Assembly (NCBI RefSeq): GCF_057098645.1
Contig: NZ_CM169472.1
Direction: 5' to 3' (one strand)
Length of the DNA: 64,000 nucleotides
Each line of letters starts with the position of its first letter. Position 1 is the first letter of the stretch. Of the stretch, positions 13,371-16,391 are shown piece by piece. A program made the position numbers and the translations under genes. Under the pieces are notes generated by a model. The model had not been told where the DNA came from, did not search any database, and saw only the letters and a list, made by a program, of their open reading frames with translations.

Positions 13371-13559
13371 CAGGGACATCCTTTTATCATCGGGAATACG
13401 AAAGAAAAGGGAGAATAAACGTCTTACTTATAGAACAGTGAAGAATGCCACAATTTTACGCTTTGAAAATGATGACACTATCACAGTTGGCGCATTCATT
13501 AACGATAGGGTATAAGTAAAACAATAAGTTAACACCGCTCACAGAGACGAGGTGGAGAA

Positions 13560-14300
13560 ATGTTAGATCAAGTATGCCAGCTTGCACGGAATGCAGGCGA
13601 TGCCATTATGCAGGTCTACGACGGGGCGAAACCGATGGACGTCGTCAGCAAAGCGGACAATTCTCCGGTAACGGCAGCGGATATTGCCGCACACACCGTT
13701 ATCATGGACGGTTTACGTACGCTGACACCGGATATTCCGGTCCTTTCTGAAGAAGATCCTCCCGGTTGGGAAGTCCGTCAGCACTGGCAGCGTTACTGGC
13801 TGGTAGACCCACTGGATGGTACGAAAGAGTTTATTAAACGTAATGGCGAATTCACCGTTAACATTGCGCTCATTGACCATGGCAAACCGATTTTAGGCGT
13901 GGTGTATGCGCCAGTAATGAACGTAATGTACAGCGCGGCAGAAGGCAAAGCGTGGAAAGAAGAGTGCGGTGTGCGCAAGCAGATTCAGGTCCGCGATGCG
14001 CGCCCGCCGCTGGTGGTTATCAGCCGTTCCCATGCAGATGCGGAGCTGAAAGAGTATCTGCAACAGCTTGGCGAACATCAGACCACGTCCATCGGCTCTT
14101 CGCTGAAATTCTGCCTGGTGGCGGAAGGACAGGCGCAGCTGTACCCGCGCTTCGGACCAACGAATATTTGGGACACCGCCGCTGGACATGCTGTGGCTGC
14201 AGCTGCCGGAGCGCATGTTCACGACTGGCAGGGTAAACCGCTGGATTACACTCCGCGCGAGTCGTTCCTGAATCCGGGGTTCAGAGTGTCTATTTACTAA
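13560..14300 (+). CDS. cysQ: 3'(2'),5'-bisphosphate nucleotidase CysQ
   Basis: 246-aa inositol-monophosphatase-family ORF (WLVDPLDGT motif). Confidence 0.95.
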
Positions 14301-14511
14301 ATTCAGATGGCAGAAACAGTGTATTTCCTGATTCTGCCATCCTGATTTCTCCCAACCTAAAAAGTTATAAATAAAAAGAGATTGTATTTAAAGTGCAAAA
14401 ATTCAATTGCTAATAAGTTACATTTTAATAATGAGCGTTTTTTGATAGTTTACTTTTATAATGAGATATTTAATGGCGACATAAAGTAACCAAATAAAAT
14501 AAGGTTGTCAT

Positions 14512-15450
14512 ATGTTACCCAAGATCAGACACAATAATTTTATTGGTGCGGTGGAGTTATTTGTAAAGTCTTCGTATACAAAAACACATTCAAACAATTT
14601 TTTTAACAATATCCAGCATGCATTTAATAAAAAAGATTGGATTTCGAATTATGATAGCCTGTTAACTTTGCGGGAGTTCTTTCGTTGCGCAACTCAGATT
14701 GATAAAGATAGTTATCAAGTGCTTTCATCAAAAAATGAAACTGTTAAAGCCATGGATAAGTTTCTTATCAGTTTCAGCCTTAAAGATAACGGTGCCGAAT
14801 ATACAATGACATTGCGAGGTAGTGGATTTGAATACGAAGAAATACCCATAACAATAAATGAATATAACTCATTCATGGATTTCAAAAACCGCGAGTTTCC
14901 GTTAGAACAAAACAGAAGATTGTATGCCTGGGATATTTTGCAGAAAAAACAGTCTGACATACCGAAAAGGATTAAAGGTTATATTCACCAGGCGATTGGT
15001 GACGTGTCTTTAGGTTATGCCTTATTGGAGGATATAGTAAGCAAATTAAAACGGGGTAAATTTGAACTCCAAATACCAGGAGGTGGAATTAAAGAATGCG
15101 ATGGATGGTATATTTACGAAAAAATAATTGATGATAATTTTGCCATAGTCATAGAATCTTTGGGCTTTGCGCTTAAAATCTATGGAGGGGATGAACGTTT
15201 TCGTAATGGTTCCTCTGTTGTTTTGGAGGATGAAGATTACTCTCTTATTTATAATTTTCTGGTTAATGCAGGTTGCCAACAAGTCGAATTAGCCGAACAA
15301 GTGGATGCGATAGTAAGTGCGAATCTGGCCGCAGATAGTGATATTACCAAAGAAAAGATTTGCGAGAAATATAAATCGACCATTGAGGCGTTTAAAAAAG
15401 AGCAACTAGCGTTACCAGTATTAGTTCGGCGTAAGAACTCAGAGACTTAA
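14512..15450 (+). CDS. ytfI: uncharacterized protein YtfI
   Basis: 312-aa ORF in a visibly AT-rich segment; no recognisable domain. Confidence 0.78.
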   Translation: MLPKIRHNNFIGAVELFVKSSYTKTHSNNFFNNIQHAFNKKDWISNYDSLLTLREFFRCATQIDKDSYQVLSSKNETVKAMDKFLISFSLKDNGAEYTMTLRGSGFEYEEIPITINEYNSFMDFKNREFPLEQNRRLYAWDILQKKQSDIPKRIKGYIHQAIGDVSLGYALLEDIVSKLKRGKFELQIPGGGIKECDGWYIYEKIIDDNFAIVIESLGFALKIYGGDERFRNGSSVVLEDEDYSLIYNFLVNAGCQQVELAEQVDAIVSANLAADSDITKEKICEKYKSTIEAFKKEQLALPVLVRRKNSET

Positions 15451-15512
15451 TTCCCCTATCCCATAGATAACGATAGGGGAAAATTATTTTTGCAGAATTT
15501 ATGTTATTGCCA

Positions 15513-16067
15513 TTATTTGAGCAACTTTTGCAGCAGGTCCATCACTTGCTGCACCTCTTCCTGAGTGAGCGCCCCGTCTTTGGCCCATTGCACGCGACCA
15601 TCCTTATCCAGCACCACTACAGCGGAACTCTCTTCATCCAGCTGCCAGGCACCGCGCGCGACGCCATTGCTATCGACAATAAACTGCGACCAGGGATAAA
15701 GCTTTTTATTACTCTCCAGACTGCTGCGCACAAACATGCCGGAACCCGGAATCGCGTCGTCGGTGTTAACAATGGTGGTGGTCTGGTAACGATCGTGCGG
15801 TAACTTCGCTGATTTAATCGCTTCAATCAGCGTCGCGTTTTTCTCTTTTGCAGAGGTGCGACCAGCAATATGTTGCAGTACTCGCACTTTTCCCACTAAC
15901 TGTGCGCTGTTCCAGGTTTTGTAGCTAAACTGATCTTTATCAAGCACCAACTCGCCCCGATCGGTAATGCCAATCGGCGGCACTCGCTGACCGGTTTCGA
16001 ACTGATGTGCGGAAGCCATCATCGGCAACAGCAGGCAGGTGAGTGCCAGAATCTTGCGTAGGGTCAT
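15513..16067 (-). CDS. ytfJ: periplasmic protein YtfJ
   Basis: 184-aa ORF with signal peptide MTLRKILALTCLLLPMMASA. Confidence 0.88.
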   Translation of the reverse strand: MTLRKILALTCLLLPMMASAHQFETGQRVPPIGITDRGELVLDKDQFSYKTWNSAQLVGKVRVLQHIAGRTSAKEKNATLIEAIKSAKLPHDRYQTTTIVNTDDAIPGSGMFVRSSLESNKKLYPWSQFIVDSNGVARGAWQLDEESSAVVVLDKDGRVQWAKDGALTQEEVQQVMDLLQKLLK

Positions 16068-16391
16068 GGTGTTTCCTTCTTATGATATGCAGGTGATCCG
16101 ACCACTTGGGTCTGAGTTTTAATCATATGTGCTATTTATCGAATTTCCCGCAAGTGTGATGCCAGTTTGCGGTCAAGCGCACAAATCATATGAAAAATGA
16201 ATGCTTATACTGAAGACCGCGCTTCGGTAAAAAGATAATTCTGAATAATTGTAACCTTTAGGTAAAAAAAGTTATACGCGGTGGAAACATTGCCCGGATA
16301 GTCTATAGTCACTAAGCATTAAAATTTGCGCCTCATAATAGTTGGGCCGATTGTGGCACCGCACAGGCGTAATACTCAGCAGGAGATAACA

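Follow-up and report, generated by a model that had tools for sequence, protein, structure and literature searches.

Positions 14301-15512 of the 64,000-nucleotide stretch of E. coli O145 RM9872 DNA analysed here (the window) probably constitute a single-gene xenogeneic islet, which would have arisen by one ancient insertion of AT-rich DNA into the cysQ/ytfJ overlap; this assessment takes in the mechanism and protein role proposed below. Base-by-base comparison with empty-site genomes delimited the islet as 1212 bp running from the cysQ stop to the ytfJ stop, exactly between two converging housekeeping (core) genes, cysQ upstream (13560-14300, + strand) and ytfJ (15513-16067, - strand). Its only coding content is the ytfI ORF (14512-15450, + strand), which has an ATG start, encodes 312 aa and is labelled 'ytfI: protein YtfI' in the 100%-identical record NZ_CP028379.1. 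The cysQ-ytfI-ytfJ locus of K-12 W3110 is 98.5% identical to the window at the DNA level, with synteny kept, and K-12 YtfI (b4215) shares 98.1% amino-acid identity over 312/312 codons. In length and neighbours the ORF matched the K-12 'y-ome' orphan YtfI (NCBI name 'protein YtfI') without difference, and it represents the O145 copy of that gene.

The initial annotation had described an AT-rich unit at 14300-15480, consisting of the ORF and about 200 bp upstream of it. Windowed GC calculation bore out its presence and its contrast with cysQ and ytfJ, and the comparison with empty sites moved its 3' limit to 15512. The GC content of the islet was 0.341 (leader, 14301-14511, 0.275; ytfI CDS, 0.356) compared to 0.549 in cysQ and 0.526 in ytfJ. 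In 300-bp windows, GC fell from 0.58-0.59 in the 3' half of cysQ to 0.29 at 14300-14699, and rose through 0.33-0.38 in the ORF to 0.49-0.53 in ytfJ. Third-position GC (GC3) was 0.33 in the ytfI CDS, 0.58-0.60 in cysQ and ytfJ, and 0.54-0.60 in neighbouring genes overall. Across the whole window, 1212-bp windows had a mean GC of 0.506 (sd 0.049), placing the islet ~3.4 sd below the mean and outside the normal GC content that would have spoken against a foreign origin. Three further stretches of the window have similarly low GC. The islet is single-copy, its leader and hairpin do not belong to a repeat family, its borders carry no terminal direct or inverted repeats, and Rfam gave no match across it, the hairpin beside cysQ included.

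Among 5426 complete E. coli genomes, 1622 (~30%) carry the islet. In the sampled islet-free E. coli and in E. marmotae, E. fergusonii and Salmonella (S. enterica), the site is empty and cysQ and ytfJ overlap by 11 bp. Because all of these genomes share the overlap, the empty junction is ancestral, and the horizontal acquisition proposed in the initial annotation was upheld as an insertion relative to that site. The insertion is also recorded in the 3' end of ytfJ (15513-15530, - strand), where the derived ending …LLQKLLK-stop (184 aa) replaces the ancestral …LLHKL[LI]NK-stop (185 aa) that overlaps cysQ. The derived tail was found in every ytfI-bearing locus scored (n=11) and an ancestral-type tail in every empty locus and outgroup; YtfJ was 185 aa long in nearly all of ~120 outgroups. 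This common derived tail, together with an identical hairpin in the ytfI-bearing loci, points to a single insertion event. A patchy distribution combined with old alleles could also mean that ytfI was ancestral to Escherichia or Enterobacteriaceae and was repeatedly deleted, leaving most lineages without it. However, the empty sites of Salmonella, E. fergusonii, E. marmotae and E. coli share both the 11-bp overlap and the YtfJ tail type (LLHKLL/I-NK/SK/SR-stop), which repeated deletion could not have rebuilt, and no other genus has a relative of ytfI. On these sequence comparisons we regard ancestry followed by loss as effectively refuted, with a vanishingly small probability.

A scan of one genome per species across 100,044 species detected ytfI only in an Escherichia lineage and on one contaminant contig. 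In these searches the gene was confined to Escherichia, and the broad vertical conservation with a known domain that would have contradicted a horizontal origin was not seen. No relative of ytfI was found among phages or in IMG/VR, and plasmid matches occurred only in chromosome-sized records (0.66-4.9 Mb). Searches for a donor, integrase, tRNA, target-site duplication or terminal repeat were negative, and the islet shows none of the features of a classical mobile genomic island, namely an integrase or transposase, a tRNA/att site and flanking direct repeats.

The insertion appears to be old. Lineages with flanks ~89-95% identical carry, colinear at the one junction, ytfI alleles that share only 76% and 69% of their amino acids. 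In two comparisons of divergent alleles, dS was 0.36 and 0.71-0.72 for ytfI compared to 0.13-0.27 and 0.32-0.69 for the flanks. Since divergent alleles share the site and ytfI dS is close to flank dS, these data indicate that ytfI was acquired in ancient times, much earlier than its patchy distribution suggests and not in a recent strain-level event. Recent horizontal gain by a few E. coli lineages such as K-12 and EHEC would fit the label 'K-12-specific segment', the absence of the islet from ~70% of E. coli genomes, unameliorated GC and GC3 far under host values, and H-NS binding of the kind seen in recent imports. Against it stand the divergence of the alleles at one junction, the tracking of flank dS by ytfI dS, the junction, derived ytfJ tail and hairpin common to all alleles, and the lack of any phage, plasmid or viral-contig relative that could be a current donor. 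Recent gain was thus already disfavoured, and we consider it improbable. GC3 stays at 0.30-0.33 in all ytfI alleles despite the age inferred for the insertion, which implies very slow amelioration under H-NS unless the insertion is younger than estimated. The matching dS of gene and flanks could also come from homologous recombination that moved the whole cysQ-ytfI-ytfJ block.

The insert begins with a hairpin. The initial annotation had noted a hairpin at about 14305-14340 and assigned it to the 3' end of cysQ; we confirmed its existence (14306-14341), and the comparison with empty sites assigned it to the inserted DNA. This hairpin 1 (14303-14345, + strand) begins 3-6 nt past the cysQ stop. 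Its core stem pairs GATGGCAGAA (14306-14315) with TTCTGCCATC (14332-14341) and can be extended to 14303-14345, giving a 13-16-bp stem followed by a weak U-tract, CCUGAUUUCU. The predicted RNA has a minimum free energy (MFE) of -21.4 kcal/mol (z = -6.0; 0/200 shuffles fold as well), and the structure is unique within the window. Its 34-nt core is invariant in 11/11 ytfI-bearing loci scored, and 14/16 pairs never vary. One compensatory GC to UA change was seen, in a covariation signal that is not significant (4 distinct sequences; 130/500 shuffles equal it). A role for the conserved stem as a terminator or insulator of cysQ is plausible. Hairpin 2 (15451-15491, + strand) lies directly past the ytfI stop and consists of a GC-containing 10-bp stem (15451-15460 with 15472-15481) followed by the U-tract AAUUAUUUUU, with an MFE of -17 kcal/mol (z = -3.6). 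It was kept in 10/11 filled loci scored and has the stem and U-tract expected of an intrinsic terminator; we therefore designate it the predicted intrinsic terminator of ytfI. Compared with the intrinsic terminators of convergent genes, hairpin 2 is alike in its stem and U-tract after the ytfI stop and hairpin 1 in its stem after the cysQ stop, whereas the weak U-tract of hairpin 1 is unlike them and a consensus scan detected neither hairpin. The AT-rich leader between hairpin 1 and ytfI (14346-14511, + strand) contains a Shine-Dalgarno sequence, AAGG (14501-14504), and a candidate sigma-70 promoter, TTGATA-17-GATATT (14442-14470), from a scan whose 5 matches are at the chance level of 5.1 expected by composition. 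The whole leader (14301-14511) is 88.7% and 83.5% identical to those of the L007 and L011 lineages, compared to the lower 83% and 76% of the CDS, and contains no credible small ORF.

YtfI is predicted to be a soluble, cytoplasmic protein of 35.9 kDa and pI 5.8 that lacks a transmembrane segment. It had been said to contain no recognisable motif, and our searches agreed: nothing rose above threshold in Pfam, NCBIfam, PADLOC, PHROGs or PDB sequences. When the window protein and all alleles served as queries, the only Pfam match was LisH (E = 0.81), and NCBIfam and the PDB, the latter searched by sequence and by profile, gave nothing. PHROGs gave phrog_3250, of unknown function, below significance (E = 1.4e-3). 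PADLOC-DB v2 returned only Cas6b (E = 2.7e-3; best 2.6e-4 across alleles), in a match that spans 40 residues (model length 240 positions) and lies within an invariant segment, which does not place YtfI among defence proteins. An exhaustive phmmer search of 1.84 billion representatives recovered YtfI fragments only, with no homologue outside Escherichia, in keeping with the orphan status first proposed. The sole outside match (P0036, 1100 aa, E = 7.8e-4) aligned a repeated Ig/MBG-like 'DYxLxYxNNxNAG' motif with YtfI residues 225-262, and we judged it a short-motif coincidence whose score is inflated by five repeats. Structure models were poor (pLDDT 52 and 44), with no assignable fold. The PUR-alpha and Whirly-type ββββα repeat folds of single-stranded nucleic-acid binders were considered as possible relatives, and a test for internal duplication of the two β/α halves was negative. 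Because of the poor models, the domain picture leans mainly on substitution patterns.

These patterns indicate that YtfI is a real protein, since its whole-gene dN/dS is 0.22-0.39 (compared to 0.01-0.15 in flanking genes in the same comparisons) and residues 1-139 are constrained. In this N-terminal part (14512-14928, + strand), omega was 0.11-0.20 in every comparison (Fisher p 1.4e-3 to 1e-14). A ytfI CDS was annotated in 59/60 genomes of an even-step sample. We inspected three versions called 'hypothetical protein' (H80, H101, H105), and each proved to be an uninterrupted ORF, 303 or 307 aa long; the 319-aa variant is likewise intact. A spurious ORF in non-coding AT-rich filler, or a decaying pseudogene, might be suspected from the lack of domain and homologues, rare codons at 8.3% compared to 1-3% in neighbouring genes, the poor structure prediction, truncated protein clusters in databases and occasional IS insertions. 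However, we give this reading very little credence, given a frame that stays open even between alleles with a dS as high as 0.72, the strength of N-terminal constraint, the near-universal CDS annotation in the sample and the intact length variants.

Codons 140-240 (14929-15231, + strand) form a variable central block, for which a beta-meander sheet and then a helix are predicted, and are the best-predicted part of the model (pLDDT 60-75). At least four distinct types of this block exist among ytfI alleles. Within E. coli it carries 26 non-synonymous and 6 synonymous changes (omega 0.7-1.15) with dS not raised, and at long range omega is 0.39-0.41. An omega of ~1 fits diversifying selection and lack of constraint alike, and the two cannot be separated. 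The predominance of non-synonymous changes and the number of block types would be expected if YtfI were a conflict-type protein (anti-phage, anti-plasmid or effector-like) whose central block is diversifying and whose presence or absence is under balancing selection. A long-lived presence/absence polymorphism fits this too, as do the solitary position of ytfI with its own candidate promoter and predicted terminator and the independent capture of another AT-rich single-gene cargo at the E. albertii junction (below). Nevertheless, the PADLOC match is limited to the short Cas6b stretch, no enzymatic domain was found, omega ~1 is equally expected under neutrality, no phage phenotype has been reported, and the junction is absent from hotspot reports in the searchable literature. 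We consider such a role unlikely. A broader version, somewhat more doubtful still, is that YtfI is the first member of a protein family not described before, limited to Escherichia and novel in fold. It would act in genetic conflict with a phage, plasmid or competitor, with a conserved N-terminal domain doing the work and a central block that diversifies for recognition. Islet and empty junction would then be alleles of a long-standing balanced polymorphism, at a junction that repeatedly captures single AT-rich genes, the last point resting on its independent filling in E. albertii.

Earlier work had already annotated ytfI in K-12 and described it as a strain-variable insertion bound by H-NS. 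The H-NS ChIP check suggested in the initial annotation is answered by published ChAP-seq data, in which H-NS binds ytfI as a strain-specific segment of K-12 and its signal over cpdB, cysQ, ytfJ and ytfK is confined to the strain that carries ytfI (Higashi et al. 2016, PLoS Genet, PMC4720273, S10 Fig). Our literature search found no derepression data for ytfI in hns mutants and a sole ytfI phenotype, one overexpression-screen match for HOCl resistance (PMC8228696). Searches on b4215 returned nothing relevant, and other mentions of ytfI were list entries or an unrelated Bacillus gene name.

Returning to the reading that we prefer, a single ancient insertion, foreign AT-rich DNA would have entered once, long ago, exactly at the 11-bp overlap of the convergent cysQ and ytfJ stop codons. 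It would have brought with it the hairpin past cysQ, an AT-rich leader with its own candidate promoter, ytfI (encoding a predicted soluble 36-kDa protein) and a predicted intrinsic terminator, and would have rewritten the last codons of ytfJ. The insertion would have occurred before E. coli diverged from at least one sister lineage within Escherichia, and the islet, carried by ~30% of E. coli, would still segregate with the ancestral empty allele. H-NS presumably silences most transcription of ytfI and most from spurious promoters within the AT-rich DNA. The two hairpins may part three transcription units, where the ancestral state would have been a head-on collision. Our best guess, held with low confidence, is that YtfI is a conditionally expressed accessory protein whose conserved part does the work and whose variable block makes lineage-changing contacts.

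The analysis adds little to general biology. It does offer a natural example of foreign DNA that is still AT-rich and H-NS-bound and that would have segregated with an empty allele since before E. coli left its sister lineage, and so bears on the slowness of amelioration in silenced DNA. One exact junction, an 11-bp gene overlap, appears to have been struck twice independently by unrelated single-gene cargo. The finding that the orphan is a real protein under a two-part selection pattern can guide experimenters in choosing the half to mutate or exchange. H-NS spreads over cpdB, cysQ, ytfJ and ytfK only in strains with the islet, and the polymorphism may therefore alter expression of these core genes from strain to strain.

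At the same cysQ/ytfJ junction, E. albertii carries an AT-rich pentapeptide-repeat gene (WP_001340718.1), also a single-gene cargo, of ~1.5 kb and 33% GC. As in the ytfI islet, a perfect hairpin adjoins the cysQ stop and the ytfJ tail is rewritten. In contrast, the E. albertii protein is unrelated and encoded on the opposite strand, the ytfJ tail is LLHKLLT-stop, and, unlike YtfI, the protein has a recognisable domain (Pfam Pentapeptide, E = 7e-12). The literature on cysQ and ytfJ together contained no report of this junction as a hotspot. Compared with the H-NS-silenced xenogeneic AT-rich islets of enterobacteria, the ytfI islet differs in having neither mobility machinery nor border repeats, in lying precisely inside the overlap of two genes, and in being, as we infer, a very old, single insertion that segregates with the ancestral allele rather than a recent strain-specific gain. 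It resembles them in its GC content, ~16-17 points under that of the genome, in its absence from the orthologous site of relatives, in H-NS binding with spread to neighbours, in a dN elevated relative to core genes and in its orphan cargo. Two features that define xenogeneic islets, AT-richness and insertion rather than loss relative to related genomes, were both found in the ytfI islet.

The cysQ-ytfI-ytfJ stretch of the window is 100% identical to that of E. coli O145 RM9872 and 98.5% identical to that of K-12 W3110. ytfI (14512..15450, + strand) starts with ATG and encodes 312 aa, named 'protein YtfI' in RM9872, and its neighbours are cysQ (13560..14300, + strand) and ytfJ (15513..16067, - strand). 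The locus with ytfI is already described in the literature; new here are the age of the islet, the polarity of the change, the finding that E. albertii independently gained another insert at this junction, and a selection pattern that differs between parts of the protein. In 300-bp windows, GC content is 0.58-0.59 over the 3′ half of cysQ, falls to 0.29 immediately past that gene, is 0.33-0.38 over the ytfI ORF and returns to ~0.5 in ytfJ. The islet (14301-15512) has a GC content of 0.341, with 0.275 in the leader, 0.356 in the CDS and a GC3 of 0.33; the mean of 1212-bp windows over the whole window is 0.506 (sd 0.049). The initial annotation, which had described a 312-aa ORF in AT-rich DNA between cysQ and ytfJ and read it as an acquired islet gene, was correct in both observation and interpretation. 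Three other low-GC stretches of the window, at ~1600-2500, ~53900-54800 and ~57700-58100 (1.2-kb GC 0.31-0.40; lowest value of the window, 0.312, at about 54400), may be further AT-rich islets.

The islet was found in 1622 of 5426 complete E. coli genomes; in 1604 of these, the match covers at least 80% of the islet. The cysQ-ytfJ spacing is 1.2 kb shorter in sampled E. coli without it, and inspection of two empty sites showed an 11-bp overlap of cysQ with ytfJ and a 185-aa YtfJ. E. marmotae, E. fergusonii and Salmonella enterica likewise have the 11-bp overlap and a 185-aa YtfJ, the length of nearly all of the ~120 listed YtfJ orthologues of other Enterobacteriaceae. In compared loci with the ancestral arrangement, the convergent overlap lies at 2231-2241 of L001 and at the equivalent position in L002, L012, L013 and L015, and neither islet hairpin is present. 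YtfJ terminates in …LLHKLINK in empty E. coli alleles, …LLHKLLNK in E. marmotae and …LLHKLLSK in Salmonella. In all 11 ytfI-bearing loci that could be scored it terminates in …LLQKLLK, and a 34-nt hairpin core is invariant in 11 of 11 scorable loci. A deletion could not recreate the ancestral overlap and tail, so the empty allele is ancestral and the islet stems from one insertion event. No direct or inverted repeats were found at the islet borders, and the islet contains no integrase or tRNA. Together with the allele divergence described below, these results show that AT-rich DNA was inserted once, anciently, into a gene-overlap junction, and they support horizontal acquisition of ytfI.

The ytfI transcription unit is bracketed by conserved hairpins. 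The hairpin noted earlier near the cysQ 3′ end is real: just 3′ of the cysQ stop, GATGGCAGAA (14306-14315) pairs with TTCTGCCATC (14332-14341), with an MFE of -21.4 kcal/mol and z = -6.0. Of its 16 pairs, 14 do not vary and one has undergone a compensatory change from G-C to U-A; covariation among the four distinct sequences was not significant. The second hairpin (15451-15491; -17 kcal/mol, z = -3.6) directly follows the ytfI stop and is succeeded by a U-tract. As putative terminators, the two hairpins would end cysQ and ytfI transcription and so keep apart units whose transcription collides at the ancestral junction. The 211-bp leader contains no credible small ORF, an Rfam search gave no match, and leader and hairpin are single-copy and confined to islet-bearing genomes. 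A candidate promoter, TTGATA-17-GATATT (14442-14470), has an invariant -35 element, with promoter-like matches across the islet no more frequent than expected by chance. Against two divergent Escherichia lineages with ytfI, identity is 95.5% and 88.8% for cysQ, 88.7% and 83.5% for the leader and 83% and 76% for the CDS, giving the order cysQ > leader > CDS in both comparisons.

Two divergent ytfI alleles, encoding proteins with 76% (P0008) and 69% (P0010) amino acid identity, are colinear and occupy the same junction, in genomes with flanks ~95% and ~89% identical to the window, respectively. L011, one of the divergent lineages, is a species representative in a one-genome-per-species collection, and its distance from E. 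coli at this locus is about that of E. marmotae. The dS of ytfI is 0.36 in the nearer lineage (flanks 0.13-0.27) and 0.71-0.72 in the farther (flanks 0.32-0.69), so ytfI has diverged at about the pace of its flanks. On the simplest reading of these sequence comparisons, insertion took place near the base of the E. coli/cryptic-clade radiation, with filled and empty alleles both retained since. Movement of the whole cysQ-ytfI-ytfJ block by homologous recombination is an alternative. GC3 is 0.30-0.33 in all ytfI alleles, notably low given the age inferred for an insertion at the base of the radiation. The intergenic regions ytfJ-ytfK (16068-16391) and cpdB-cysQ (13380-13559), both divergent-promoter regions, are 93.8% and 95.6% identical to the L011 lineage, above the 89-90% of ytfJ, cysQ and paeA, which suggests that they may hold dense regulatory or RNA elements.

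YtfI is a real protein of restricted lineage distribution, constrained in its N-terminal part and changing fast in its central block. Whole-gene dN/dS is 0.22-0.39, versus 0.01-0.15 for flanking genes in the same comparisons. Codons 1-139 have an omega of 0.11-0.20 (Fisher p 1.4e-3 down to 1e-14). For codons 140-240, omega is 0.7-1.15 within E. coli (26 non-synonymous versus 6 synonymous changes) and 0.39-0.41 at long range (p about 1e-3). Since dS is not raised there within E. coli, this block is not an imported old segment, and it may form a contact surface. After about residue 295 the tail varies in length and sequence. YtfI is predicted to be soluble (35.9 kDa, pI 5.8, GRAVY -0.38, no hydrophobic segment). 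The CDS was annotated in 59 of 60 islet-bearing genomes sampled at even steps; the reading frame is intact in three inspected 'hypothetical protein' versions of 303 or 307 aa (H80, H101 and H105) and in a 319-aa variant. A few loci carry IS insertions, and IS elements cluster around the locus: a 70% ytfI allele is followed, 45 bp further downstream, by an IS5-like element (DUF772/DDE_Tnp_1; L005 6967-7421/L006 4146-5126), IS1 lies inside cysQ-ytfI-ytfJ in strain 2900 (H9, NZ_CP103633.1), and IS1 breaks cpdB in strain PSS-08-1 (L001 1-656).

The absence of a recognisable motif was borne out: YtfI matched nothing in family libraries or PDB sequences, and an exhaustive phmmer search of 1.84 billion representatives recovered nothing beyond YtfI fragments and a single short-motif coincidence. 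In the latter, P0036 (1100 aa, metagenomic Ig/MBG-like repeats), residues ~370-870 contain five repeats that each match YtfI 214-261 by the motif (V/L)xxxDYxLxYxxNxNAG, at E values of 1e-4 to 5e-3 per repeat; a distant β-strand motif relationship is possible, and we judge the match a coincidence. Among 100,044 species representatives, ytfI occurs only in L011 and on a contaminant contig of a Collinsella MAG (JAIJJM010000759.1, 1501 bp), which shares 97.5% identity with cysQ-ytfI-ytfJ of E. coli and almost certainly entered the bin as contaminating E. coli DNA. Searches among phages, plasmids and IMG/VR were negative. The PLSDB 'plasmid' records with the chromosomal ytfI locus are chromosome-sized (NZ_CP141089.1, 4.94 Mb; NZ_CP134663.1, 4.90 Mb) or 655-kb replicons (AP026530.1/NZ_CP128951.1), and thus give no evidence for plasmid-borne ytfI. 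By ChAP-seq, ytfI is an H-NS-bound segment in K-12 that is absent from SE11 and SE15, and cpdB, cysQ, ytfJ and ytfK show H-NS signal only in the presence of ytfI (Higashi et al. 2016, PMC4720273, S10 Fig). This published binding establishes H-NS occupancy of the islet, and H-NS probably holds ytfI mostly silent. ytfI is also the top 'disputed' sigma-32 ChIP target, taken as an artefact by others (PMC3870955, PMC2996942), and its overexpression was a hit in an HOCl-resistance screen (PMC8228696). Remaining mentions are list entries, and no reported function was found in the literature. YtfI is possibly a conflict gene, but no family match supports that reading.

The cysQ|ytfJ junction has been struck twice, the second time independently. 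At the same point, E. albertii carries a 1504-bp insert of 33% GC (L014 3056-4559), also found in two 'E. coli' records (L003 4742-6245 in NZ_CP144930.1) whose cysQ, ytfJ and paeA share 98.7-99.8% identity with E. albertii. These records, NZ_CP144930.1 (SCPM-O-B-9504) and NZ_CP144926.1 (SCPM-O-B-7615), reach only about 86-87% identity with E. coli in these three genes; probably they are E. albertii under the wrong species name, or else they contain a large introgressed block. The insert has its own perfect 12-bp hairpin adjoining the cysQ stop and encodes a 385-aa pentapeptide-repeat protein rich in Ser and Asn. Only generic models of pentapeptide repeats match this protein, with scores that do not reach the family cutoffs; in NCBIfam, models of PipB2/PipB-type T3SS effectors match weakly and below threshold (E = 2-4e-3), and solely within the repeats. 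The E. albertii cargo thus resembles the ytfI islet in its junction and in being a single AT-rich cargo, whereas its protein is unrelated to YtfI, lies on the opposite strand and is accompanied by a third type of YtfJ tail, …LLHKLLT.
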